Below are positions 939 to 42,875 of a stretch of DNA of 64,000 bases, piece by piece. Positions within the stretch are counted from its first letter, which is position 1. The number at the start of each line of letters is the position of its first letter. Made by a program: the position numbers and the translations under genes. This DNA is from Botryllus schlosseri (Eukaryota). Where the stretch lies: contig CM119372.1 in assembly GCA_051294905.1 (NCBI GenBank), forward strand, positions 7,814,001 through 7,878,000, in the 5' to 3' direction. Below the pieces are notes generated by a model. It searched no databases. It was not told where the DNA came from and saw only the letters and a program-made list of their open reading frames with translations.

Positions 939-2156
939 TCAACGCCGATCAGGCCACTCGAGTTTGACGAGCCCCGCGGCGGCGTAGGATCCTACAATAA
1001 ACTTGCCTTCCGCGTATTCATGAAACTCCGACATAGCGCTGCAGTGCTTCCCGCTTTTATCAAAATGTATGCTCTGGACCGCGAAATCTTTGGAAATCTT
1101 GACCGCGGCGCCAGAAGTCGAGAAGCGAGCGACAGTCAAGTAAAATAAGTAATCGTGGCTTATCAAACCTCCCATGATGTCTCTGACGACGGGGAATTTC
1201 TCGGTGTAAAACCATTGCGGTCCGCCGAATGCTGCAATCGGCGCCCAATAGCCCCCCGACACGGACCGTCTGATGTTGTCAGACCCTCCGGGAAGCAGTA
1301 TCGTGTTGACTTTCTCGCTAGTCGCAACGTTAAAAACAGATATACGTTTTCTGGCAAATTCGGACACGAGAATTTTGCTTTCGTCAGCGCTCAACTCCAA
1401 ACCGTTCGGCAGGCATAGATTGTCTTTCCAAACGCGGAATTGATTCGTTTCCAAGTCTACTTTGATGATCCGTCCCGAACAATCTCCTTCGGTTATCATC
1501 CAGGCTGCTTCGGAAAACGTCCAACGCGCGCTGCTGTCGACGAAATACAGAGTCCTCCCGTTCTTTGTAATCGCCAAATCGTTCGGTAACATCAACGGCG
1601 GCGTTGTGTCCTTGTAACCGACGATGTTTTGCCATTGCAAGCTTGTTAGGTCTATGGAAAAAACGCCCTGAAAGGAATCTGCCACGTACAGCTTGTTGGC
1701 GAAATATCTGATTCCAAAGACTCGCCTCGTCGAGCGATCGCCACCCGCCGTATACGCGACATTTTGCGTGATGTCGACTACTGTTTGTTCGGGTTCTCCG
1801 AAGTTGATAATCTTCACAATTCTACCGTCCACCAGTCCGGTGTATAGATTCCCAGAATCGTCAATAGAAATTGACTCGGGAGCGATCAAGTCGTCCAAGA
1901 ATCTCACTCCTCGTTCGAGGTCTTTGTTGCTTTGCTTTGCCCAACTAGGAATCTTGTGGTTATCAACAATTGATATCGACGACAGTGGTGATGTCAGGTA
2001 GCCGTAACAAAGTACTGACATCAGTACTGCACATAACAGGATTATTGCTCTTGAGAAAAGCTCGCCTGTCTTACGCGAGCTGGTATCATAACTTTCTGTC
2101 TCACGCGACTGCGTATTTTTGGCAGCCTTTCGCCTACGTACTGTATTTGCATCCAT
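939..2156 (-). CDS. APMAP: Adipocyte plasma membrane-associated protein-like (strictosidine synthase-like beta-propeller), intronless, type II membrane protein
   Basis: 405-aa ORF. Basic N-terminus (VRRRK), one TM helix (AIILLCAVLMSVLCYGYL), and family motifs APESI, GNLYTGLVDGRIV, PNDL, LYFVDSS, LPNGLELS, LPGGSDNIR. Confidence 0.85.
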   Translation of the reverse strand: MDANTVRRRKAAKNTQSRETESYDTSSRKTGELFSRAIILLCAVLMSVLCYGYLTSPLSSISIVDNHKIPSWAKQSNKDLERGVRFLDDLIAPESISIDDSGNLYTGLVDGRIVKIINFGEPEQTVVDITQNVAYTAGGDRSTRRVFGIRYFANKLYVADSFQGVFSIDLTSLQWQNIVGYKDTTPPLMLPNDLAITKNGRTLYFVDSSARWTFSEAAWMITEGDCSGRIIKVDLETNQFRVWKDNLCLPNGLELSADESKILVSEFARKRISVFNVATSEKVNTILLPGGSDNIRRSVSGGYWAPIAAFGGPQWFYTEKFPVVRDIMGGLISHDYLFYLTVARFSTSGAAVKISKDFAVQSIHFDKSGKHCSAMSEFHEYAEGKFIVGSYAAAGLVKLEWPDRR

Positions 2157-2775
2157 GCTTTACTTATGCACCTGTTGCGACACCGATTGTTGTCTATCAA
2201 ACTAGATTCGATTCGTAACCGTCGGCAATCGACATGCACAGATTAAGCTAACGATGATTCAGCACAATGAATATGAAATATTTGTCCAGCGAAGATGTGT
2301 TTGCGGATATATGAAACTCAAATATAGTCGACACTGTCGAAGTCGCGAGTACCGTTTTGTTCCAATTACTTGACAACACATGGATCGAGTAATGGTCCTT
2401 GAATTTCAATTCATATCAGTCGTTGCGTCACGATAGTAACAAGAAGGAAACTTTAACGCAAAACTTAATTGAAGAGGAATCTTGCGACGCCATACTGATT
2501 TTTGATTATTTCGCCTGACACGTTTTGTTAATTACAATAAATGACTCGCTTCTGCCACTGCTACGAGATGCCCACAGATACCAGATGAGACGGAAATGGT
2601 GTATTTGGGTCCGTGTTCGCGGGCCCCGAAGATCGTCTGAACAGTGTTCAGTGTACAGGTACACAGGGTTGTTCAAAAATAACTTTTTTTTTCAAATTCA
2701 ACTTGCTTAGTGATAAAATTGTTTCGTTGCCTGAAAAAACGCTACACACTAACGACTTGTTACAACACCCTATGA

Positions 2776-5056: not shown

Positions 5057-7060
5057 ATCAATCAATCAATCAGGTTTATTAATATTTTCATCGTTTCAAA
5101 ACATCACAAGACTGCGATACAATGAAAAAGATAGGATGGTGTCGAAACAAATTGGAGTAGCCTTTAAGATCAGACACCCACCATAGCCTAGGCGAAGTAA
5201 ATATGAGGCATGCACACTGAATGAGAAGTAATGCAGAAAATATAATACGCAAGCGACGAAATGGTCGAAGTTGGGTCGTGGCCCGGTAGTCCTGAAGACT
5301 GGCTAGTATTCATTTAGAAAAAATTGCTTGTATTTCGACTTGAATGCGGACATGCTCAACGACTGTCGGATAGCCGGTGAGATGCTGCTCCACAATCGGG
5401 GTCAATTGTGCGCTTTTGTCTCCGAGGTGAAGTAGTCGTTGAAATTTGAGGGACATTAACAGCAATGGAACTGATACATAAACTTGGAAACTTCTAGCTT
5501 CCTCATATCTTCTATGTTTAGAACACCAAATCTTTTCAGAAGCTATATATCCGTTGCACATCCAGGCCCCCGTGGGGATTTGGTAATGATACGGAGGATC
5601 CGATGTTGAAGTTTTTGCAGTGGGTCAATTGTATTCTTGCAGGCAGCACCCCAACAACGGATTCCGTATTGTAACTTTGATAAGAATAGAGTTTTGAAGA
5701 GTATCAACAGCACGCTGACTGGCAGAGTGTAGCTAAGGAGGAAAAATAGACCACATACCTTCGATAGTTGTGGTTTGAGTGATTGTATGTGACTCTTCCA
5801 GCGGACATGTCCGAATCCAGTAAAACACCAAGGTATTTGGCATTTTTAGTTTTGGAAATTTGTTGGCCAGAGATGTCAACGGTTAGGTTATCGCAATAGT
5901 TCACGACCAGTAATTGGGATTTCGAAGCATTAACCCGAATGCTATTATGGGACGTCCACTCATGCACGGGTGACGGCATTTAAGCTTGCGGTAGCAGGTG
6001 CGTGAGATAGAGGTGAGTATCGTTAGCGAACAGACTGGTATTCAATGATGAGGTTTCAAAGATATCATTGACATATAAAGTAAAAAGGACCGGTCCAAGA
6101 ACAGAGCCTTGCGGAACATCACAGGTTACAAGGTGGGGAGAGGACAAAGTGTTGGATATCGAAACCATTTGATATCACCCTGTCAGGTAGCTTTTCATGA
6201 GCTCTAGTTGTGAACCCCGGAACCCGTTGCGAGCCAATTTCGAGAGAAGAATACTGTGATCGACGCAGTAAAAAAAATGCTACACCCCACACTTCGTTTC
6301 TCCAAGATCTCCTAGTACTGTTCGGCCACTGTTAGCAGGGCATGCGAGGTTTGATGCTTTTTGCGGAAGCCGAATTGTTGTGGAAAAATGATAGACATCT
6401 TGGCGAGGAATGAAGATAGGCGGGAGATGAGCAATTTTTCGAACACAATTCCAATACACGGTAGGACAGATATAGGTCGGTAGTTGGTGACATTAGTTCT
6501 ATCTCCGGCTTTGTAAACCGGGACAACCCTGGCGGTTTTCAGATAATTTGGGTAGACACCATTTTTTATCATGAAATTGAAAAAAATGAGCGATGAGATG
6601 GCCGATAGGCGAATCAGTTAAAATATCCAGGCTGGAATTAGATCATATCCAACTGCCTTGTTAGATTTAAGTTCGTGAATGGCAAGTAGGCTAGGCTACC
6701 GCTTCTGTGGAGGTTGCAGGCTCGAGCATGATGAATTGGGATACTGATTTAACCTCAGGCCTGGCCGACGCAGGTTTAGAAATAGATGAGGCGATATTAG
6801 GCCCCACATTGCAAAAATATTCATTGAAGTAATTTGAGATGGCCGCAGGATCTGTCAGATTGTCCCCGGTAGTCGAGTTCGTGATTTCCGAGACAGGTCT
6901 GGTGCGTTTTTCTGGTGCAAGAGTAATTTAATTCTTGACCAGGTTTTGTGAGTGTCCTTCTTATGTTTGTTGAAGAATTTCTGCGTTAGCTTTCACTTTT
7001 GCCTTGGAGATATGATGGCCGATGAGATTTCTGAAGCGTCGAAATCTTTCTCGTTCGTCT
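5057..7060 (-). mobile_element. Decayed, 5'-truncated non-LTR retrotransposon (CR1/L2-group LINE), reverse transcriptase pseudogene
   Basis: Frameshifted pieces ARVVPVYKAGDRTNVTNYRPISVL...QQFGFRK, DVPQGSVLGPVLFTLYVND, LFANDT (degenerate catalytic motif), KYLGVLLD. The 3' end is a (TGAT)n tail at ~5057-5072. Confidence 0.9.
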
Positions 7061-8556: not shown

Positions 8557-8949
8557 GAGCCAATTTGGATAAAAAACGAAGGTCATATTCGTAGTCAGTG
8601 TCCTTCAGAACCCCCAAATTCCAAGGACTGCGAGTTCAGTGATTTCAATAAGTTGGCGACAAAATAGTAAGCTCTGTCAATTTTAATTAACATACGTGTG
8701 TAAATGTGTATAGACATTGTATGCATATTTATTCGGAATCAGCGGTGAGATACCATGTGACGACCAGAACCTTTCAGTAGTTCGCACCATATACCGACGT
8801 CTCGCCCCCACTCCTCAAATATCAAAGTCCAACATACACTTCATAATTCTTCAATTTACATAAAAACGCATAACACAAGCCGCAATATGTAATTTGTTAT
8901 ATTACGTGGTATTTGGCTGAATCACACGGATCGAAATCGCGCATAACGA

Positions 8950-11900
8950 TCAATCGGATCCGTCACCTGACGTCGAATCTTGTGTGTTCGTTTCGATCCA
9001 ATCAACGAAACTCGACACCTGAAACAGTGAGTAATGAGATTCACAATATGATTAATATTGGTCTGTGACGGGCAAGAAAATCTAACCTAAATACAATTCA
9101 TACTGGGTTTGGGCAGAATCGAGTATAGGCCTACCCAGGGATTTGATTTCGAGACGAGTGTTTGACCATCTGTTATTATAACGTCATATATTTAACGACG
9201 ATATGCAAACTTAAAATTTGTGCCTTTTGTGCAAGATGTAGAAACCACACCTATAACGTCGATAATCACAATGGGTGCATAATTCCGGTACCAATAAAAT
9301 CGTCATCAATATCTGTGGGGTCATACATGAGATACTGATGCACATTTTTGACTTTACAAGCAAAGCGGACTGTTTTTATAGTTCCTATTGTGGCGGACCC
9401 CTGGTCCCATTAACGCAATGCATCTGATGTGATGGAAATAGAACACTTTCTTAGTAACAATTTACCACGTGATCGTCCTACTACTCACCATATCACGGCA
9501 ACTTACTTCGTACTTCGATATTCTCTCATCATTGCATGGTGCATCCTGAGTAGGCCAAAATAAACTGGTTTTCATGGTTTTAGGATATGAGACTCTTTTA
9601 CGGTACCAACGACAATGGCGTATGAATAAACTGTATTGAGTGTATCTGTGGATTGGGAATTCACTACCAGGATAGCAACGGACATAGGCCAAGTTTATTA
9701 CCGGTACAGCGCAGCCCATAATATTTGGTTAACTACCATTGTACTTCAGTCAGGCAAATCCGTCAAATCTGCAGCACTATTTAACCTGACTCGATGAAAT
9801 CTGAACCAAGCATCCTTTATAATAGCTATAGTGTTCTGGTCCATGTGCGATACAAGTAGCAACCATAATAGTGACTCTAAAATTCGTTGTGTCGGTCACG
9901 TACATGTGATGAACGTATAGTCGACCTTAACGACCCACCCAAATTTCCATCTTTTGAAACCGCCAGCAAACTTCGGCTTATAAACGCATACATTGCGAAT
10001 GCACATTACTTACCCGAGTAAACAGGGCCGGCGTGTTTCTTCTCCCACAGTCAGGGCGTATTGATATGCCGAGAACCTCATATTGTTTGGTTTCCAAATT
10101 TTTGTGGAACATCGGTCCACCTTCATCTTTCTGCATAAAAGCAACGTTTCAACAAGTAAGAGCGACTGGTTGAATTTTCCTATTTCGCAAGGAGCGATGT
10201 TTGCAGTCGATGAATATAGAGTTTATGGGAGGATGAAGGCATGTCATTATTATCGCTGATACTACTCAGTACACTGGGACCAAGTCTGTAATTTTGAATC
10301 AAAATTCATTTCAAAGGGTACCGCGGTCGAACGGTCAAAGGTCTGAAAAACATTTTGCCAGCAGTTATTTTACAAAGAAACCAACAGTATTAGAACTGCA
10401 GCTAAAGGGTTTTTACGTAAGACACCATTTCAGTCTGTCGATCTATGATAGCGAGGTAACGCGTCATCGATTCTTAACCCTTTGCCATATTTATGACATG
10501 CATATCAACACTGTAGCATTTTCTAGACTCGGTCGAGACGGGGATTGGATTTCAGATAGTTTTCAGCCGATATTACAATACCACAGCGGTTTAGTTACAG
10601 TAATTAGGCATCAGTAAATAGGCATGCACCGTACGGCACGCTACTGGGCTCAACGGGTGGCGTTCAGCCAAATACATTTGTGTGCAGCACCAATCCCTTT
10701 TCAGTCGAGACCACAGAGTATCTAGAAAGCAGTGCCCTTTTAAAAATACGTGTGAACCATTTCAATTTATTAGGTATGTACGGGTTCAATGGGTCAGAAT
10801 CCCCAATCAAAACAATATCATATGGCTCCATGTCGTTTTATTAAACGTGATAACCCATACACATAATATTCAAGAGTTATTACTTATTATCCATCTTAAC
10901 TCGACTATAGCCTAGTATAAGAAATTTATTAAGAACAGTTAGCTTGATGCGGATGTTATGCTGCAGTAAACGATATGGTTGTAGCGAATTGAGTATTGAG
11001 CAACACCATAATAATATACGCCTCTACCCTGCATGCAGATGGATTCTTCTTTCCTCCACATAGCATGGTGTCGGTCAGACCCATGAGATCCCGCTGGCAA
11101 TTAATGTTGCGATAGATAAATGTGTTTTTTGACAGGAGAATGGAGCTTGCTGGCGCCCAGGCTGTAAATGGAGAAATTATGTATGCACCCAATTCATTAA
11201 CGCGTAACTTCCCATTTATACGAGGAAAGTAAGTAGCGCTCCTTCTCAAAGTATTTTTGGGGTACTGTCTTACGAATAGAGCACCATTATATACTGACTT
11301 TTAACTTTCAACTTTGATTATTATCAAGTTTGATTCCAACGTTTTGTTGCGTTACATGCAGTGCGCAACACAGTCACTGATTCTCCATAAACCCGTGTTT
11401 TGCGCAGTTATTTCAATCTTCGAAGTCGAGTGTGCGACTGGAGACTCCATTCTCGAATTACATCACCTATTACGATGTCGTCTACGCTACCAACAATATA
11501 GTCGGTTAAAGGTATTAATGAGGAATCCTACTCAGCGAATGCAGGAGAATATCTCCTTGTGGCTATTTTCAAATCTCATTACCTTTCGGCTTTCCCCAGC
11601 CTGCGATTTTGGTAACTCCCCTCGTAACGTCGGAAACCGGTAAACATATTGGAGACATATATGTGGTTCGCTCGTATGCCTCAGAAAGCTGTAAAAGTAA
11701 AATAGCACACTTACAGCAACGTGTCTATAACAATAATAAGTTTCACTGGGTGTTTGGTGCAAATTAAGAGCATTCTGAATTTACAGAGAATGGTTCATTT
11801 TAACTATAGTCAGCGACGACATTAAATCTATATTTGTCCGTTATTCAGGCTACGTGTTTTCCTTCTGTAATTATTTCGACAGCTGTTAGTCTTTTTCGGG

Positions 11901-14900
11901 CAAGAAAATGTTTGGGAGTGGCAATGTGACGTCATAGGTTCGTGTTCACTAAGAACCTTTCACAAAAGTCTGAAGCGTAAAACCTTTCAAGAATTCGCAG
12001 ATCCCAGTCAGATATACTTACTTGTATCAGCGCAATGTCATTTTCAAACGAGTAATGCGTGAACGATTCGTGAATTATGATATCACCGACGCTTTCTGTC
12101 TTTTCAAACCATTCAGTTTTGTAGATTTTGTTTTCTCCGAGGATAACGTAGTACGCCGAAGGCACCGCTGTGCTTCAAAATATAATGCAGAGAAAGATTT
12201 ACCAATCGCGCCACAACGATGATAGCAGATCCGTAAAATCAAAGTAATCAACCATTACAGTGACTACAATGTAAACAAAAATCGTGTATTCCGCCGATTT
12301 TCCCCCTAGCGTACACTTTCGGGTACCATATTTTACTTTCACACCCTTCCAATGGGTGAAAATGAGTATAATACACCAATTCTTATGGAAATGTATCCCA
12401 GGGCTGTAGTGGGTTCTGTGTTCGTTTACCACCACAAAAAATCTAACTAAATAGAATTCACTACACCCCCGAGATATATGTCCGTAATGATTGGTGTATT
12501 TGACTCATTTTCACCCATTGGAAGGGTGTGATAGCGATAGCGTTATTTCGCGATTCGCGATTTTCATGACAAATTCTCTCATAAAAGGAATTCACTGTTT
12601 TCAATTTTTCATATTCCTAAGTGTAAAATGACAGAAACTATTCGAGTAGTGGTGTAAAATTATATCCACTAGGCTGAATAAGTACTACAAGTAGGAAAAA
12701 ACTCCATAAGTACTTCGATACTGACCACCCGTCTATAATTGTATATCATGATTACAAAGGTAGAGTCGAAAGGATGAATTGAGACAGCATGATTACAGAT
12801 GATTCGTAGTTTTTTCAGGATAAAATTTCACCATTGAACTATATGCCTATAATTTTTGGTTCGTAAACTACTCGTACTCTGGTAAGCAGCTAGCGGCAGT
12901 AATGACCCAGTTATCTTCATAAAGTACACCTCCGCATATATGTTTGTCGTTGCTATGTTTGCGAATAGACACCATCCACGGAATAGCTCCTGGTTTTGCA
13001 TTTTTACCTAACAAATGAAAGAAATGTGTTTGTTAAGCAGACTGCATAGAGATAGGAAGTAGCCACAAAATGAGCAAGATTCACCATTGGCTATTCTTGC
13101 TTCGATTTGGTTCAATGTTTCTTGGCTGGCATTGAACTGCACCAAACGTTCCAATACGTCTTCGCTTGCGTTCCACTGCTGCAGCAACCCCGGATATTTT
13201 CTCGTAATATTCCATTGTTCGTAAAGGTACTGATATCCATGTGGGATTAACGATCTGCGACTTCTGAATACGGGGTTCGTGGAATCCAAAGCAAGGCTCT
13301 CTTCTATGTATGAAGCTGTTTGGTTGACATCTGACGGTAGCTGATCGAGTAAACTCACTTTTGGCACACCACACATTTCTGTCACAGAAAGCCCAAGTTT
13401 ACTGGTGTGATATTTAAATGATTCTAGCGCTATGATCGATGAACACTGATCAGTCATATCTGAGCTATACTGTAATTCCTCTGCCAAGTTATGTCATGAG
13501 CCGCTTTGGTTATAGCAAGGTTCACCGGGTCTATATACCAGCAGCGGAGTGCATTGGATGTGTATTCAAATCACTTACCGTCGCAGCTGGCAACATCACA
13601 TTGCTCCCATCGTATGGGAGCTAACAAATCGTTAGTGAAACACCAAGGACCGTTGATGTCCCCCGTCGGGTTTCTACAGTAGTTCTTGAAAAGCTTGCTG
13701 TCCGGGTAATTCTCCCTTTTGCTAAATACGCGAAAAACATTCATTCAGAACCGAATCACAATGATATTTACAGTAACATGAGCGTGTATTTCTCAGAGGT
13801 GGTCAGTAACGAAGTACTTCTACTTTTTGGAAGTACTCAAGTAGTTTTCCTCTACTTCTGATACTTACTCAAGTAGATCTGATTTCCTCTACTTCTGCTT
13901 CTACTTCATAATATTTTGTGATCTACTTACTTACTTTTCGCTATTTTCAGTTTGTCAAGTAGAAGTAGTTTATTCCCCCAATACGAAAGATAGCCTGGGG
14001 AATTTCGGAGCTGTTTTCGCGGAGTACCAACATTTAGTATTAATAAAAGTCAAGTAAAGACCGGAAATTTTGTTGCGCTTCGCGCACAGTAGTTATGGAG
14101 TGACAAATATGTTTTCACGAAAGTATCATTGAATTTTATTTAAGTACCGGATTGCTTGGATCCGCTCACATCGCATTGTCGCCCATATCAAATATTTCAT
14201 CACAGTAAATATGGCCCACCATAACGTTTGAAACTACCGTTTTACGATCTAGCAATTACCTATCATATCGTAATCTAGCAGCCCATTACGTGTCTTGCTA
14301 ATTTGGAAAATCCAGACATTTTGAACGCTACACCTGTTTTAGCAGATCACCTTTGAAGCTTTGTGGACAAAAGACATGTAATGCATTCTCCGCTTCTTAG
14401 AAGTGGTATTTGTATTTCACTTTCAATTCCGAGTATCATACATTGAGTTCTAATTACTTTCAGTTCTTTTTTTCTGCAGAACATACATGTTGAAGCATAA
14501 AAGTAAGTGTAGTATGCCTCTATTTTCCGAAAATAAAGCTACACTAAATATAACTTTTACGATCCACAATATTTGTTATTAACGTATACTAATCACGCAA
14601 ACTGATGAAACCGTATTCGATAAAACTTCTACGTATTGCTCTTCGCCTAAACTTGGGACCTTATAATATGGGGTAGGGCGCCATGCCATGATATTCTCTA
14701 AAACGGGGTATTCTAGTAAACAAAGGGTTAGTATCGCATTTTCATATCAATACTATTATTTGCACCCATGATGCGAAAGAATGCTTATTCTGTCGAAGAT
14801 TTATACCTCCCGGGATGCATCATTACGAATCAAGCTCTCTGCACCTTCCGCATAGCTCAATTCGCAGGCATTGACAGTCCATGCGAACGAATTATGACTG

Positions 14901-17900
14901 TTTTCAAAACTACTTACTTACTTGAGTAGATTTAAAGTCCATCAATTCTCCTTCTACTTCAAGTAGTTTTAGGTGGCTTGTTGAAGAAGTACTTCTACTC
15001 GTACTTGAGTAGATTTTTTCGTCGCTACTTCTACTTCTACTTGAGTAGCTTTCTTGACTACTTTGACCACCTCTGATTCTGTCATGCAAATGTTATGTTA
15101 GTAACATGACACAGTGACTTTGACTGCGCTTTGGTAAATTATAGGGAGATCGTCGTTGATTTACTAATTACACGGTTTTCTGCATTGCAAGTAAAATCCA
15201 CGAATTGGAACACATTTTTGAGTAATCACTCAACGCTACCGTTGCATTGTATACCTATTGTTGAACGAATCGCAACTTCAACGCCTGTCTGAGTATTATT
15301 AATACATGCTTTAAAGTTTAAACCATTCGTTCTCAAGTAGTCTGTCAACCCGCCCGCGGAACCCCAATTATTGGTTCCAATTTAGCTCGAGCTTGCATCT
15401 TTCTTGAAAACACATCTTCTGTGACATCTGTTTCAGCATGTGCATTGTGCACGTCAGAAGCAAGTCTTGAAGTGGGCTTATGGGGTCGTGTCCTGGAAAT
15501 CCGCGCCTTTCATTTGATACGAACAAGAGCCGAAAACCCACTTTCGCAAGGATTGAACATCTCATGTCTTGCCTAGTCAGTGACTGACAGTATCACATCC
15601 AAAAAGTTTTGCAAACATTGCTAGTTATACTCTGATTGATCTTTCTACTCCAAATTTTCATATTGTGCACAAACCCCACCAAACCATCTGTAAATACTAA
15701 ACAGTAATATGTTTGTGTCAATAAGCCTATTGACTAAATGGCTTAAATAGGTATTTAAAATGAGTTGCACCGTTGGGTATTCTATTTAAAGGGGTATTCT
15801 GCTGATGGAACCCTGAAGTTTTATCAGTTATGAAACAAAATGATATATGATCTGCCTTGGCTTAGAAAATTACGAATTAGTTTATCAATAATGTTGCAGA
15901 TTTAGGGGTTTCACGGACTCTCAGCTGAGAACCACTGCTTTAGACTTACAAAGTGTGAGTCGTAGGGAAATCATCTCTCCATTTTTGACACTCGTATCCA
16001 CTGCGCGTTTGAGATATCTTCCCGCGGTAGCTGTCTGGCTCACCGCTTTCGAGGCAAGGCTTTCCGTCTCCAGATGACAGCCATGTCCCGTGAGTATCCA
16101 GCGTGACACTTTGAGCTTGAACCAAATGGTAATAACTCCATTTTAAGCTTTGTTATGAGAAATTCAAATTGTTATCAAATTTGATCGACATGGCGTTAGC
16201 CTAGCACAGCTAGTTTAAATTGGGTTACCATATTTTGGAAATCTGAAAAGAGGACACTTTATCAAAATTTTCAGACTTGCAATACCGGAGGAAATTTTGT
16301 AAAAATGGGAAATTTTTCCCACTTTGTGGTCGGTTGACTAAAAAAAACGGTAAACTTTCCGGCTCAACTCCGAAATTACGGTTATTCTTTCACATTATCC
16401 GTTGGATGACTAAAAAAAGGTCTGCTTTCCGGCTTAGCTCCCGAAATAGCCGCTGGAGCGTTACTTCAGTGCTGGTTTACTGTATCTCAGTCGAATTTTG
16501 CCCTATATTTAACCAAAATTCTCAAAAAAAGAGGACAAAATCTCAAAAAAGAGGACATTTGGAGGTCTTGCGAGGACACTTTTAAAAATGTCAAAAAAGA
16601 GGACAAATCCTCTTATAAGAGGACGTGTGATAACCCTACTTTAAATCAGACTACAATGACATTACCCGCGTTATAATTGTGTTTTATATCAGTTGACTTC
16701 GACCATAACGAGAGTTGTGCAAAGCTACCCTTCTTGTCTGGCTGCCCTTCTTCTTCGCAGGTCAGGGCTACGCGATCTTATACATTTTCAGGGCAACACG
16801 AATTTGATCAATGTGCCAGGTTGAGATGCTAGGAATGATTTAGAGAAGGTACAGTAAGCCTACATACCCAAATCGCATTCTCGTAATTCACATTCCAGCG
16901 TTTCCAGCCACTTCCCCGTGCATCCTTCTACTCCTGGCAATCCAGCTCTACATTCTCTACGTCTATAAAGATGGAAATTGTATATACGCCACAACACACT
17001 CTATAGCAGGGGTCATCAACACGTGGCCCGCGAGGTCATAATTTGCGGTCCGCGATCTGATTTGAGATTTCGAAAGAACGCTAAATAAAGCATTTTTAAA
17101 TGCTGAAATTGATTTCAGTTTGAAAATATTGTTGTTACTGTTTCAAAATAAGCTATTATAATAATATAAAAGCTATTCTCCTGTTCCCAACACCACTATT
17201 CCTCACTAACTGAAACGGCTTCGTCGTCGGCAACAGCATTCATTCGAAGGGTAATCAGCTGACATGAATGGGTGATTGGGCAATGGGCATATTGTCTTGA
17301 CTTGCAATTGCTCACTGCCTAGACCAAGACGCTTTGACAACCAAGAGATAGTCGAGATAGTCTTTAAGCTATAGTACCGTGTCTCGCTAACCCCCCCCCC
17401 CCCAATATCGATTTCTTAGTCGCAGAAGAGCGTTGTTAGGAATCGTGCGCAGCTCATAGGTCAAAATATAATGAAATTGATGATCATGATATTTTTTCGG
17501 TTTGGCTTAACTTCTCGCTATATTACATTCTTGCGGCCGCGGCCTCAACAAAATTTAAAAAGTAGGCCACTACCCGTTTTGAGTTGGCGACCCCTGCTTT
17601 ACAGTCTACGCCAGTGCTTCTCAACCGGTGGGCCGTGCACTGAAATTTGGATGAAAAGTGGGTCGCGAACTGAAAAGGGTGAAGCGCTGGACTCTACGCA
17701 TTCGCGGTCATCGCGCGTGCGTGATGATATCCGCCGTTTGCTTCGACAATGTATTCGTTTTCATCATCTGAAATCTCACCTCGTGCGAACCCCTTCCCCA
17801 CATGACCTCGAACAGCTTGACCATGATCCCCACTTTCTCCATTTTGAGCATGATCCTTCTGAAATTTTGATAGAATCAGGTGCGACTAAAATCCTCTGAT

Positions 17901-18598
17901 TTTTTATCCTAATACAAAAATATTATAGTGAATGTCAGCTGCTAATTCCAAATCATTAAGGAAGCAAACGACATCATTCGATATTGAAATATTGCCTGAC
18001 ATGCCCTATCTCGAAAGGAAATGTATTAGCAGATACGCTACGTCATGACATAACCATGTACAATCAACTCATTCCGATTTCAAGGGAAATAAATCAGCAC
18101 TGTTCATATTGTTGTTGTTCACTGTATTACTATAACATAGGCTTACCATATTTTGGAAATCTAAAAAGAGGACACTTTTTCAGAAATTTAAGACTTGCAA
18201 AACCGGAGAAGAATTCTGAATTTTTAATTTTTCCCACTTTGTGATCGGTTGACTAAAAAAAAAAAGGTCATCTTCTCGCTCAGAGCTAAATCGCCGTTTT
18301 CACTCCGAAATACCCGCTGGAGCTTCATTTCTGTGCTAATTTGCGGCATATCACTCGCAATTTGCTCTGAATCTGACTTAAATTTTCAAAAAAGAGGACA
18401 AAATCTCAAAAAAGAGGACAAAAGGGCGTCCTCCGAGGACACTTTCAAAAAAGTGAAAAAAGAGGACAAATCCTCTTAAAAGAGGACGTATAACATTTGC
18501 GAGACGGATTGTGCTCCAAAATAATGTAGTAGCGCTATACAGAAATTACCTTTGAGGCAAAGCAAGACTATAAGAAGAGCCGAAACTTTACCCGACAT
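8950..18598 (-). CDS. Secreted TSP1-kringle-trypsin-like pseudoprotease (13 predicted exons)
   Basis: Phase-compatible GT-AG exons: 18550-18598 signal [16 protein letters not shown]; 17780-17858 and 16868-16962 TSP1 ([22 protein letters not shown]); 16666-16777 spacer; 15950-16115 and 13579-13721 kringle ([34 protein letters not shown]); 13085-13378 linker ending RIAN; 12878-13007 ([21 protein letters not shown]); ~12022-12173 (NDIALIQ); 11583-11688 (PICLP..AGWG); 11028-11161; 10014-10130 (KDEGGP); 8950-9018 (VSSFVDWI..stop). Confidence 0.88.
12338..12531. repeat. Palindromic MITE-like element with ~50-bp inverted arms, intronic
   Basis: cacacccttccaatgggtgaaaatgagt...acaccaat is reverse-complemented by attggtgt...actcattttcacccattggaagggtgtg. 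Confidence 0.7.
13794..15075. mobile_element. ~1.3-kb non-autonomous DNA transposon (agtag/ctact-rich subtermini), copy 1
   Basis: TIR cagaggtggtca / tgaccacctctg; colinear along its whole length with 19046-20322. It lies in the intron splitting the kringle. Confidence 0.85.
16221..16638. mobile_element. MITE family with tagggttaccata TIR and gaggac subterminal repeats
   Basis: gggttaccatattttggaaatctgaaaagaggacac ... gaggacgtgtgataacccta. Related copies at ~18138-18495, 29266-29865, 38619-39027, ~43530-44025 and ~48445-48483. Confidence 0.8.
17007..17596. mobile_element. hAT-like MITE
   Basis: TIR caggggtcatcaac / gttggcgacccctg; imperfect TSD ctctatag/ctttacag. Its right end matches the fragment at ~3628-3720. 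Confidence 0.75.
18138..18495. mobile_element. gaggac-family MITE copy in the first intron of the pseudoprotease gene
   Basis: taggcttaccatattttggaaatctaaaaagaggacac...gaggacgta; very similar to the reverse complement of 38619-39027. Confidence 0.75.
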
Positions 18599-19045
18599 AG
18601 TGAAGACGCCTAGTAATCCTCCAGGAGTCTTGCCAAAACGAATATGAGACCATATATCAATGTAAAGCCGCATACTGATAACGGAGACAAGATTCATGAC
18701 TTGATGACTAAATACTGTCCTAATTTATCAAGCCTTATGAATGTTCAATAGCTTGGCAGAACTCATTCAACATAATTTCATTTCCGGACAAAGATTTCTG
18801 ATTCAACGAGTTACGATGCCAATCACGTAGCCTAGATATCCATGAATGCTGTTTTACTCTCATGCATTTTTAGTCTCATTCTTGGCCTTTATATTGACAC
18901 TACTGCGGAAATTTAGTTGAGTCGAGGGCTTGCAATCATATACATTTATTCTTTATGGATAAATCTTGATGTATTATCTTTCACTGTTGTAGAACCACTG
19001 CGATCCATACTATAGAGTCGTTTATATTTCGGCCTCACTTGATTC

Positions 19046-20322
19046 CAGAGATGGTCAGTAACGAAGTACTTCTACTATTTTGGAGTACTCACGTAGTTTT
19101 CCTCTACTTCTAGTACTTACTCAAGTAGAACTAATTTTTTCTACTTCAACTTCTACTTCATAATATCTTGTGATCTACTTACCTACTTTTCGCTATTTTC
19201 AGTTTGTCAAGTAGAAGTAGTTTAATCCTCCAATCAGGAAGATAGCCTGTGGAATTTCGGGGCCGTTTTCACGGAGTATCTACAATTAATTTTCATGAAA
19301 GTTGAGTAAAGCCCAGAATTTTCGTCGCGCTCCGCGCACAGTGGATGTGGAGTGACCGACATGATTTCACGAAAGTATCGGGGAATATAATTTAGGCAGC
19401 GGGTTGCGTGGTTCCGTTCACACCGCATTGCAGCCCATATGAAAAATTTCATCACAGTATATATGGCCCATCATAACGTTTGAAACTGATGTTTCGTAAT
19501 CTAGCATTTACTTATCATATCGTAGTCTAGCAGTCCATGTCGTGTTCTAATCTGGAAAAGTGGGCCCTGAATTTTTTTAAAGCTTTATATCTGTATTTAG
19601 CATACAACCTTTGAAACGTTCTGGACTGAAGACATGAAATACATTCTCCGCTTTTAGAAGTAGTATTTTTATTTCACTTTCATTTCCCAGTATCATATTC
19701 TGAGTTCTAATTAGTATCAGTTCTTTTGCCAGGAGAATATACATGTTCAAGTATAAAAGCAAGTGTAGTAATGCCTTTAATTTCCGGAAATAAAGCTACA
19801 ATATGGCATTTTTACGATCCACCATATTTTTGTATTAACGTTTACTAATCGCGCAAAGTGTTTCCACTTCATCCAATACAACTTCTCCGTAATGCTCTTC
19901 GATTAAACTACGGGCCTTATAATATGGGGGAGGGTGCCATACATATCATGATATTTTCTAAAACGCGCTGTTCGAGTAAACAGAGGGTTAGTATCGCATT
20001 CCCATATCAATACTATCATTTTCATCCCATCATGCGGTCGAACGCATGCTGTCGAACATTGGATACCTGAGGTATGCATCAATATGAATCAAGCTCTGCA
20101 CCTTTCGCATAGCTCAATTTGCAGCTTGTGACGATCAATGCGAACGAATTACGATCGTTTTCACAACTACTTACTTATATTTGAGTATATTTAAAGTCAG
20201 TCAATTCCACTTCAAGTAGTTTTAGGTTGCTTATGGAAGAAGTACTTCTACTCATACTTGAGTAGATTTTTCTGTCGCTACTTCTACTTGAGTAGCTTTC
20301 TTGACTACTTTGGCCACCTCTG
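19046..20322. mobile_element. ~1.3-kb non-autonomous DNA transposon, copy 2
   Basis: TIR cagagatggtca / tggccacctctg; perfect TSD cttgattc (19038-19045, 20323-20330). Confidence 0.9.
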
Positions 20323-24699: not shown

Positions 24700-24873
24700 A
24701 GCAGTGAGGTCGGCGATGAGGAGCCCAGATAAACCCCTGACTCATAGAAACATAGCAGAGCCGAGACTCGAACCAGCAACCATTGGTGTCGTGACTGCAG
24801 TGTTTTAACCAGGGATATCTAGAACAAGTTCTAGATATCCCTGGTTTTAACCAACTGCGCAACTCGCTTCCCC
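24700..24873 (-). mobile_element. tRNA-derived SINE head interrupted by a 34-bp palindromic insertion
   Basis: Reverse strand shows an A-box-like ttgcgcagttgg and B-box ggttcgagtct; resembles the SINE at 29431. The 3' extent is uncertain. Confidence 0.65.
24810..24843. mobile_element. 34-bp TIR-only element
   Basis: cagggatatctagaac-aa-gttctagatatccctg: perfect 16-bp arms with perfect TSD gttttaac (24802-24809, 24844-24851). Confidence 0.8.
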
Positions 24874-25468: not shown

Positions 25469-32682
<7,214 letters not shown>

Positions 32683-36269: not shown

Positions 36270-37270
36270 AGGCATTCAGATTCAGAGGAATGTCTGGAGA
36301 ATAGCAAGACCCAGTTTGTGATTTTGGACAGAAATAATCTGGTGAGCATTTTTCAACGTTGTCCAATGTGTCAATCAGAGTCGAACGTGCAAGAGTCTGA
36401 TTTAGGTAGCACACTGAGAATCAAGCAAGACTGCACAAACTGCTCATACTCCAGATTTTGATTTACGGGTAGTGTAGATGGCGTTACATACTTTAAAGCC
36501 TACTTGACTGTCTGTATCAAAAAGAAACAAACTGCTCCATTCAGCATATATACATGATACATATAGGCCTAAATTTTAGTTACAATGAATAGCATCTTTG
36601 ATTCTGTTGTTTACCATTATGGCAATCCATTTTCAGATTCATTGGCATATGAAAGGATTTGCTATGTTCTCTACTCCACGCGAATGGAAAATAACATCCG
36701 CCATCTATCGCCGAATGGAAACACTGCTGGAAGTGAATCATTCAATGCCCTCAATCATTTCTGCCCAAAGTTATATCACTACAACCATATTTCAGTCATA
36801 AAAGCCAGGTAGGTACCTTGCAGTGTCTCGGCTATTCAAAACAATCTACCGTATATCAGATTTTGGCATAATTACTAGCCTCATCAATTATGCATATTTT
36901 GTAGGATGCACTTGGCAATCCTGCATTTCAATGAAAATTGCTCGGAAACTCAGAAAATGTCAAAAGAAGGAACACCGTGGTCAAATACCGGAAGTACAAA
37001 AATGGGGAATGTACGGCCCACAAGATACTTGAAAATTCAACATTTGGTAACTGCCGCTGATCTGACTGCAGCATAAGATTTCTTCATATTGTTATGCCTG
37101 TTCTAGATTTCTGCAATGAGCTTGTCGAAGAAGTTCAAGCACTCATCAGAACTGGACCAGAAACTGTTGAGTTGAGCGATTGTGCTGAGACCGTTCTACT
37201 TCCTCTGACTAGCAGCATAATCAAAATTAGCAGAGAGGAAGCTATTGCCCGACATAAAACCCGATATGCT
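36270..37270 (+). pseudogene. Decayed DDE transposase remnant, probably Kolobok-type
   Basis: Zn-ribbon CPMC..CTNC; C-terminal NTAGSESFNALNHFCPK..KAR, spliced to MHLAILHFNEN; catalytic core apparently deleted; stops and frameshifts; element end gacct|ttaa at 38256-38264. Confidence 0.6.
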
Positions 37271-37342
37271 TTTCTGCCTGACACGGTAGTCATTTTGGTC
37301 GATTGGTTACATGCGTTTATTATTTGGAATACAACTGTACAT

Positions 37343-37740
37343 TCACAATGTGGTTTTACTGAACTTGAAGCCTTTGTAAGAATTTGACGTAAATTTTGTT
37401 CGGACAGCAGTAACAACGCATGCAGGCAGGATTTTCCGCTGGTTTTTGCAACAGAATCCCCATACCCAGCGAACACAATTTCTGAAAAGTGAAAACAAAT
37501 GTATTAGTGCGAGAAAAGTATTTGGCAACCGGATCAGAGACTAATCCCATTCATACATCGAACTCGATGTTATTATTCTGCGGCCATATTCCTGTTGATA
37601 TACATAGTAGGACATCTCCAATACGTCAACGTCCAGACACACTGAATTGAATCCTGGCAATTCTGTGATACACTTTATTTCTGTCAGTAACTCTCGGAAC
37701 CCCCCTACAGCACAAACTTATCAAGATGCATGACTGAAAC
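37343..37740 (-). pseudogene. KolX-like / P2X7 C-terminal ballast-domain-like ORF remnant, convergent with the transposase
   Basis: Translates as LCCR..KCITELPGFNSVCLDVDVLEMSYYVYQQEYG and RNCVRWVWGFCCKNQRKILPACVVTAVRTKFTSNSYKGFK, recalling P2X7 C-terminal ILPSCCRWRIRKEFP...YSGFK. Confidence 0.65.
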
Positions 37741-41167: not shown

Positions 41168-41446
41168 ATGTCGGATGATCAGGGTGATCCACCAAATGCG
41201 GATAACCCAAGCGTGAATGCAACATTGGATGGCATGCCGAAGTGGCTATCAGATATTATCATATACGCTGCCACTGACCCGTACGGATTCGTATATACCC
41301 TATTCCTGTACTTATCTCCTCTATTTTTGATGAGTGCGTTCCTGTCATGGAAAATGATCCAAATGATAGAAGCTCGAGAGAAAGGCAAGAAGCGTACAAG
41401 CACTAAAGCTAAAAATAAAAAGGGCGTGAGAAGAAAGGTGGACTGA
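41168..41446 (+). CDS. SMIM15: Small integral membrane protein 15 homolog
   Basis: AATDPYGFVYTLFLYLSPLFLMSAFLSWKMIQMIEAREK matches the recalled SMIM15 motif AAKDPYGFL...[22 protein letters not shown]; single TM and basic tail; upstream acceptor ttttttgcag. Confidence 0.88.
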   Translation: MSDDQGDPPNADNPSVNATLDGMPKWLSDIIIYAATDPYGFVYTLFLYLSPLFLMSAFLSWKMIQMIEAREKGKKRTSTKAKNKKGVRRKVD

Positions 41447-42029: not shown

Positions 42030-42875
42030 ATGGAATTAGCTGGTAGCAATTTTGAAGCGGCCCTGCCTCACGAGCATTTCAAACAAGTTTTGAAGATAAA
42101 CACCAGGCCTGATGGCCGGGACCTGTCCGAATTCAGAAAAATGACCGTCAACGTCGGGTCTATTGATACCGCTAATGGCTCTGCACTCGTTCAAATGGGA
42201 CATACAATGGTCGTGTGCGGTGTCAAAGCCGAATTGACGCGTCCCCCTGCTTCGAAGCCACTCGAAGGACTGATTATTCCAAATGTGGAATTACCGCCAC
42301 TTTGCGCCTCACATTTCAAACCGGGTCCACCGTCAGACCAAGCTCAAATCGCCAGTCAGTTATTAGATAGTGTCCTAAAAACTTCTGGATTGATTGACTT
42401 GGAAAAACTATGCGTGTTCAAGGATAAACTTGTCTGGGTACTGTACTGTGACCTGGTATGTTTGAGTTATGACGGGAATATTAACGACGCGATCGTAATG
42501 GCGCTAGTCGCGGCTCTAGGTAACACCAAGATACCGGTAATCGAGTATGACGAAGACAGTGGCGCCGTGAAAACTGTCGATGAACCTCCGCTGAACATAA
42601 GCGCGATGATACAAAAAAGACTGGTTTCTTCCACCTTCTCGCAATTCGAGTCGACGCACATCATCGCCGACCCCTCTTGGAAGGAAGAGCGAGTGACGGC
42701 GGGCGGGATCACTATCGTTACAGACGAACACGGCGTCATGTGCCACCTGCACAGGCCCGGAGGTTTCCCGCTCAAAGACCAGGTATTGCAGACGTGCCTA
42801 AAACGCGCTGCTGAGAACGGAAAGAGGCTGCAAGCCATACTGAGCGAGGTTTTCGGCTCTGAAATGGTGGCGTAG
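42030..42875 (+). CDS. EXOSC8: Exosome complex component RRP43 (RNase PH fold), intronless CDS
   Basis: RPDGRDLSEFR, GSALVQMGHTMVVCGVKAE, IPNVELPPLCASHFKPGPP, LVWVLYCDLVCLSYDGNI; AATAAA at 43056. Confidence 0.93.
   Translation: MELAGSNFEAALPHEHFKQVLKINTRPDGRDLSEFRKMTVNVGSIDTANGSALVQMGHTMVVCGVKAELTRPPASKPLEGLIIPNVELPPLCASHFKPGPPSDQAQIASQLLDSVLKTSGLIDLEKLCVFKDKLVWVLYCDLVCLSYDGNINDAIVMALVAALGNTKIPVIEYDEDSGAVKTVDEPPLNISAMIQKRLVSSTFSQFESTHIIADPSWKEERVTAGGITIVTDEHGVMCHLHRPGGFPLKDQVLQTCLKRAAENGKRLQAILSEVFGSEMVA

Follow-up and report, generated by a model that had tools for sequence, protein, structure and literature searches.

We analysed a window of 64,000 nucleotides from Botryllus schlosseri (assembly GCA_051294905.1, contig CM119372.1, positions 7,814,001 to 7,878,000 of the forward strand; all positions below are those of the window) and found that a gene on the minus strand, at 18598-8950, encodes a kringle protein whose trypsin domain appears to be catalytically dead. 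Because two of the three cutting residues are lost and the residues for activation by cleavage are kept, the product of this gene, called gene A here, is probably a cleavage-activated signal and not an enzyme. It is best seen, from its domains and introns, as a dead tandem duplicate within the ascidian plasminogen-like family, of which the upstream paralog, gene B, is a second member in the window. We tentatively read the product as a cleavage-activated, noncatalytic ligand, most likely for the ascidian Met receptor, a reading that we hold with rather less than even confidence.

The gene A model runs from a start codon at 18598 to a stop codon ending at 8950 and has 12 exons separated by GT-AG introns throughout. 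The joined exons give 1533 nucleotides coding for 510 amino acids, with one terminal stop and no stop or frameshift within the 510 codons, and an AATAAA lies beyond the stop at 8733. The original prediction, made from the letters of the window, had claimed an intact reading frame with usable splice sites over this same span, and the model agrees with it exactly. We compared the window with four sequence runs, three of them consisting of contigs from different studies (X10, X11, and X16; their kind is guessed or unknown) and one of raw RNA reads (X23), which was sampled at about 6 in 100 reads; the contigs show presence only. Ten of the 11 predicted gene A introns were skipped at their exact predicted ends, each in contigs of three of the four runs (15 of 327 joints listed), and these joints leave no room for additional exons between exons 1 and 11. 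The last intron was not among the joints listed, and both the contig depth and 121 contig letters past exon 11 in X11 fit exon 12. The transcript check that had been proposed came out well for the contigs, while X23 contributed no joints and, at its sampling level, no reads on most exons of either gene A or gene B. Gene A is a real, spliced, expressed gene, as seen in contigs of guessed or unknown kind. Among the exon pieces listed, gene A differed from the contigs by no or one letter and by no gaps; exon 7 showed no other letters in X11, and exon 11 showed one other letter in X10 and X11, its position not shown. Restoring either the catalytic His or the catalytic Ser would take two base changes. 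Because of this need for two changes per site and the near identity of every listed piece, the substitutions are not assembly errors, one of the outcomes that the original prediction had named as its possible undoing.

The gene A protein is predicted to start with a signal peptide (residues 1 to about 20, with a peak 9-residue hydropathy of 3.56 at residue 7), which is followed by TSP1, one kringle, a 92-residue linker, and the trypsin domain. By hydropathy, no further membrane-length hydrophobic stretch follows the signal peptide, and the product is likely to be secreted. The first half of TSP1 is basic, with a net charge of +7 over residues 21 to 48. In alignments to plasminogen and HGF kringles from the PDB, the gene A kringle has one of the two acidic residues of the plasminogen kringle 4 loop; the lysine-binding loop is partly retained. 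Inter-chain Cys180 comes directly after the kringle.

All of the losses and retentions that had been claimed for the protease domain were present in the translated model. The catalytic His is replaced by Ser315 in the motif TAASC (codon AGC at 12891-12889), the Gly-Asp-Ser site reads Lys450-Asp451-Glu452 in KDEGGP (Glu codon GAA at 10124-10122), and SIRPDC takes the place of SWG. Catalytic Asp364 is kept in NDIAL, as are the R-IANG activation site (Arg272-Ile273), inter-chain Cys180 and Cys384, and Asp451, which is the equivalent of Asp194. All 20 cysteines after residue 20 could be placed: TSP1 and the kringle take six each, two form the inter-chain pair, and the remaining three pairs belong to the protease domain, with the pairing assigned by standard trypsin and kringle patterns. 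Zymogen activation depends on the new Ile N terminus, Asp194, GWG, and the cysteines at 191 and 220 (chymotrypsin numbering). Judged by these residues, the domain is still equipped for zymogen activation but no longer for catalysis or substrate binding, and gene A has the features of a nonpeptidase homolog of the trypsin family (S1A), namely, a trypsin domain with the catalytic His and Ser lost. Exon 11 is far diverged, its best PDB match scoring 16 bits versus 45 bits for the same exon of gene B. Pfam scans of gene A were run exon by exon (cutoff for TSP_1, 21.6 bits), and exons 3, 6, 9, and 10 gave no family match as single exons; exon 12 had no match in a PDB search.

Gene B lies seven kilobases upstream of gene A on the same strand, and its domains are a signal peptide, TSP1, a kringle, a Thr-rich linker, and a trypsin domain. 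It has the full triad (His245/Asp293/Ser385) and a trypsin-type Asp379 in the S1 pocket. Its activation site has Asn where gene A has Arg, and because of this replacement gene B would be expected to require an unusual activator or cofactor. All 11 gene A introns match gene B introns in position and phase, gene B having one more, and the two proteins are identical at 19/54 positions in TSP1, 35/82 in the kringle, and 80/232 in the protease domain. One gene B intron is predicted to be GC-AG (27430-27372). The contig depth over gene B was low and came mainly from X10, and no gene B joints were found among those listed. We also considered a longer, cysteine-rich version of gene B exon 6 (open frame from 28538) and rejected it, as the X10 depths of 4.4 and, in the next bin, 7.4 (over 177 and 333 exon bases, respectively) fit the short version.

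A plg-like entry from Ciona intestinalis (PMC6337849 supplement 7) has a TSP1-type segment first, followed by two kringles by count; its linker is rich in Thr, and its protease, which is active, resembles gene B by eye. The text of that paper is silent on TSP1. Gene A, gene B, and, by eye, the Ciona protein are alike in their signal peptide, TSP1 head, kringle or kringles, linker with the inter-chain Cys, and trypsin domain. However, the Ciona protein has two kringles and the full triad and gene B has the full triad, whereas gene A has lost His, Ser, SWG, and the S1 Asp. Gene A therefore has the domain order and shared exon structure of an ascidian TSP1-kringle-trypsin family, its introns having been compared with those of gene B only, and we place it in that family because the domain order and 11 introns are common to gene B and the Ciona protein looks alike. 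The TSP1 head is nothing peculiar to gene A, being the usual one among ascidian plasminogen-like proteins.

The linker, which the original prediction had passed over, distinguishes gene A from gene B, with 92 residues between the inter-chain Cys and the cut site versus 14. Its last 53 residues (13085-13253, minus strand) are made of four 13-residue units (none of 2000 shuffles gave a period of 13 as high), and three of the four units open with aromatic-Asn-x-Ser/Thr, i.e., with an N-glycosylation sequon. The linker holds four such sequons in total, and a furin-type RSRR (residues 216 to 219) stands ahead of the units. It was predicted to be mainly helical with low confidence (AlphaFold, mean pLDDT of 52.8) and had no family match in Pfam or the ESM Atlas. 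A search with exon 7 returned a sole homolog (one candidate), P0001, which is a genomic frame spanning the linker and exon 7 only. P0001 retains the His-to-Ser replacement and the cleavage-site residues of gene A, with identities of 37/43 in exon 7, 31/55 in the second linker half, and 3/56 in the first linker half, and it also shows a period of 13 to 14 (about 1 in 100 shuffles). The frame of P0001 continues through an intron positioned as in gene A; this read-through is unrelated to the gene A intron in two frames, and a third frame is borderline (3 in 100 shuffles, uncorrected). Because exon 7 and the second linker half are kept while the first linker half and the intron have diverged, the comparison indicates that purifying selection has acted after the loss of the His. 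With P0001 as the query, the ESM Atlas gave generic trypsin clusters only, and scans of JGI metagenomes confirmed none of 229 and none of 132 pattern matches.

For the proposed ligand, we envisage that a tandem duplication inside the ascidian TSP1-kringle-trypsin family gave rise to gene A independently of HGF/MST1. The precursor would be cut after Arg272 by a trypsin-like protease, possibly gene B with its S1 Asp379, and the new Ile N terminus would pair with Asp451 by the standard zymogen mechanism, ordering what had been the active-site face. Cys180-Cys384 would keep the two chains joined. By analogy, the basic TSP1 head may tether the precursor to matrix glycans (a role that falls to the N-domain region in HGF), its glycosylated linker may shield or space the cut site, and the kringle and the remodelled pseudo-active site may bind the receptor. 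Cleaved in this way, the product of gene A would act as a growth or motility factor. The full scenario, in which tunicates evolved their own HGF, would have gene A losing catalysis independently, keeping the zymogen switch, gaining a repeat-built, glycosylated linker, and becoming the endogenous ligand of ascidian Met, an orphan receptor directing the migration of stem cells and competition in the germline, and would make gene B a possible convertase; taken as a whole, we consider this scenario possible but doubtful.

We favour Met as the partner because dead or silenced protease domains of this family serve as Met ligands, as in HGF and SVH-1. In HGF, the Met-binding residues on the dead protease face become exposed only upon cleavage (PMC2475716, PMC4276949), and SVH-1, which has one kringle, needs no protease activity to signal by way of a Met-like receptor, a His-to-Tyr change converting it to a growth factor (PMC11305532). 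Met is present in nonvertebrate deuterostomes and is duplicated in the sea squirt, amphioxus, or both (PMC4898815). In Botryllus, c-met is expressed in germline stem cells, and these cells react to mammalian HGF, no single clear HGF homolog being reported there (PMC10615308); likewise, a chordate survey identified no plasminogen-related growth factor in lower chordates (PMC6337849 section 11). The original prediction did not consider this gap in the literature, and it is because ascidian Met has no clear native ligand reported that gene A is of interest. Gene A is a concrete candidate for that ligand and makes the question directly testable. Were it the ligand, a plasminogen-like enzyme would have turned into a cleavage-gated growth factor in parallel in the sister group of vertebrates, and there would be a native signal to manipulate in ascidian germline competition and regeneration.

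Several observations weigh against the ligand reading. The pairing of gene A with Met is one of analogy, and keeping the activation switch is also compatible with a cofactor or a binding protein. The ligand could instead be an active paralog, gene B for instance, by the example of SVH-1. Gene A has neither the PAN domain nor three of the four kringles of HGF, and it shows none of four HGF/MST1 features (Arg ahead of the His site, Tyr in the Ser position, Pro within the SWG strand, and an altered Asp102 loop), as compared by eye with the four HGF/MST1 rows in Figure S3 of PMC6337849. PDB searches gave gene A no clear leaning toward HGF or MSP: with exon 7, HGF scored 32.9 bits, lower than four unrelated proteases (34 to 42 bits) and near plasminogen (29.7 to 30.9 bits), and neither HGF nor MSP was among the seven weak PDB matches to exon 11. 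P0001 is a single homolog covering the linker and exon 7 only, so the claim of conservation does not extend to the Ser-to-Glu replacement, and it may be a paralog instead of an ortholog. Additionally, RSRR is not present in P0001, for which reason a furin-released activation peptide (residues 220 to 272) was down-weighted.

Gene A shares with HGF/MST1 a kringle and a dead trypsin domain, a single Arg cut giving a disulfide-linked two-chain form (predicted in gene A), a kept Asp194, and an altered SWG strand. However, HGF has an N-domain and four kringles where gene A has TSP1 and one kringle. From this comparison, gene A does not appear to be an HGF ortholog or a member of HGF/MST1, though it may work like HGF. 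Its inactivation was likely independent, as had been predicted, because gene A has a tandem paralog with the same introns, a TSP1 head as in Ciona, and no HGF/MST1 diagnostic residues. It is very improbable that gene A is truly orthologous or sister to vertebrate HGF/MST1, having been inactivated ahead of the tunicate-vertebrate split and remodelled later. By eye, gene A locally resembles HGF in the region of the first strands and lamprey HGF in the residue preceding Asp194, which would suit such an origin, as would the 2 to 3 bits by which HGF exceeded plasminogen for exon 7, but every lost site carries a different substitution in the two groups (His- and Ser-site replacements included), the Asp102 loop is ordinary in gene A and distinct in HGF/MST1, the active neighbour gene B shares the TSP1 head and all gene A introns, and the vertebrate tree derives HGF/MST1 from vertebrate PLG (PMC6337849). 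The HGF/MSP-like design with a TSP1 head, as originally described, holds for the shared activation features; the TSP1 head is ordinary for the family and the design is recurrent. A kringle with a dead protease is found not only in HGF/MST1 but also in coelacanth and bird PLG-like-2, which are independently dead plasminogen copies proposed to be new growth factors (PMC6337849), so the design is not unique, and what is new in gene A is its domain combination, linker, and lineage. Coelacanth PLG-like-2 resembles gene A in its one kringle, Glu at the Ser site, and loss of SWG (PMC6337849), whereas both PLG-like-2 proteins are vertebrate duplicates without TSP1 and with a different His replacement. 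Caenorhabditis elegans SVH-1 is, like gene A, an HGF/plasminogen-family protein with a single kringle, and acts on its Met-like receptor without catalysis; it differs in its intact triad, dual function, and N-terminal PAN-related domain, and its switch is proposed to work through mRNA modification and not gene duplication (PMC11305532). In the literature searched, with most subscription papers outside coverage, no inactive TSP1-kringle protease of ascidians was described, and the His-site and cleavage-site motifs of gene A were absent from nine supplements of PMC6337849. Nor did gene A appear in the accessible parts of PMC6004694, PMC8882763, PMC9643190, and PMC4523013 or of the supplements of PMC13635237.

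Other functions have to be weighed against that of a Met ligand. Gene A could encode a cofactor or decoy in a protease cascade of the hemolymph or tunic, where the cleaved protein would bind an active protease (such as gene B), its substrate (e.g., prophenoloxidase), or a serpin; we judge this unlikely on balance, but a serious alternative. Insect clip-domain serine protease homologs are noncatalytic trypsin folds like that of gene A, and as cofactors that must be cleaved to work they are indispensable (PMC6901238). Allorejection in Botryllus prominently features trypsin-family proteases, serpins, and clot-like lesions (PMC2527998), and the adjoining gene B, whose activation site has Asn, could depend on an uncommon activator. 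However, the insect proteins carry a clip domain and act as cofactors in melanization (PMC6901238), while gene A carries TSP1 and a kringle; Pfam found no clip domain on the gene A exons scanned, and the N-terminal cysteines all belong to TSP1 and the kringle. Contigs of gene A also occur in X16 and are strong in X11, runs in which the protease exons of gene B show little or no depth, a weak point given that contigs show presence only, and the precedents within the family for dead plasminogen-like proteins are growth factors. If gene A were nevertheless a cofactor, it would be a kringle-type chordate counterpart of the insect clip-domain cofactors. A plasma or tunic-matrix protein that binds or scavenges, comparable to haptoglobin or an opsonin, with TSP1 and the kringle on glycans or matrix and the dead domain on cargo or a microbe, is a still fainter prospect and in our view rather unlikely. 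The basic TSP1 half and the four linker sequons would suit it, and a Botryllus kringle-domain gene, not matched to gene A or gene B, marks hyaline amoebocytes in blood and tunic (PMC13635237), but none of the tests run indicated a cargo or matrix partner, and the lysine-binding loop is kept only in part. Finally, it is scarcely credible that gene A is an assembly artefact or a duplicate that is transcribed yet decaying. The lack of exon reads in the one raw RNA run, X23, would fit this explanation, which is largely refuted by the uninterrupted frame, the cysteines all paired by domain, the splice forms in three studies, the mismatches of at most one letter in each exon piece listed, and the diverged homolog P0001, which shares the dead His site. 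If gene A proved to be neither ligand nor cofactor, it would be a further dead protease paralog of modest interest.

Positions of gene A exons, gene B, and other features in the window
Feature	Position	Strand	Description
Gene A exon 1	18550..18598	-	Carries the start codon and the greater part of the predicted signal peptide (residues 1-16)
Gene A exon 2	17780..17858	-	First TSP1 half with W-x-x-W-x-x-W-x-x-C ladder and basic patch; Pfam TSP_1 E 1.2e-4, 22.7 bits
Gene A exon 3	16868..16962	-	Second TSP1 half with 4/6 TSP1 cysteines; aligns to paralog B
Gene A exon 4	15950..16115	-	Spacer and first kringle half; Pfam Kringle E 4.3e-6
Gene A exon 5	13579..13721	-	Second kringle half; Pfam Kringle E 2.9e-12
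Gene A exon 6	13085..13378	-	Inter-chain Cys180, 92-residue linker, Arg272-Ile273 activation site
Gene A exon 7	12878..13007	-	Trypsin domain begins; Ser315 in place of catalytic His; Pfam Trypsin E 1e-11
Gene A exon 8	12022..12172	-	Catalytic Asp364 retained; Pfam Trypsin E 0.005
Gene A exon 9	11583..11688	-	Inter-chain partner Cys384 and GWG motif
Gene A exon 10	11028..11161	-	Cys426, Cys439, Cys448; Ser446 at S1 Asp position of trypsin-like enzymes
Gene A exon 11	10014..10130	-	Asp451 retained, Glu452 in place of catalytic Ser, loss of SWG, loop around Cys477 basic; Pfam Trypsin E 0.11
Gene A exon 12	8950..9018	-	Domain end and stop codon
Gene B, tandem paralog	25469..32682	-	13 exons, 440 aa; Pfam matches on 8/9 exons scanned
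Strictosidine-synthase-like gene	942..2159	-	Single frame, apparently intronless
Reverse transcriptase fragment	5313..6617	-	Broken, LINE type; Pfam RVT_1 E 5.6e-6
SINE-like element	24701..24873	-	Multi-copy, with tRNA-like A and B boxes
GAS1/GFR-alpha-like exon	~37138..37484	-	Probable last exon; Pfam GDNF/GAS1 E 0.022, below cutoff
UPF0542 gene	41174..41446	+	Single frame, apparently intronless
Exosome component RRP43 gene	42030..42875	+	Single frame, apparently intronless

Introns 1, 3, and 4 of gene A carry multi-copy repeats (18130-18490, 16200-16640, and 13794-15075) where contigs pile up to very great depth and differ at many letters, and similar copies occur at 19040-19800 and 29270-29860. 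Three neighbouring proteins were looked up by exact match, and none of the three was in the protein collection. The strictosidine-synthase-like gene is one that we take to be of the APMAP type. The best named match of RRP43 was from Styela clava (64%, 414 bits; one named among the six matches listed), and the human protein scored 273 bits in a separate search, which marks the host as an ascidian. Rfam and ARAGORN gave no matches in the window, the SINE-like element included. This element is likely a SINE; it drew thousands of X23 raw RNA reads, and its copy at 24701-24873 contains a palindromic insert of 43 to 44 bases that about 1500 reads skip. The GAS1/GFR-alpha-like exon encodes a hydrophobic C terminus that could be a GPI signal.

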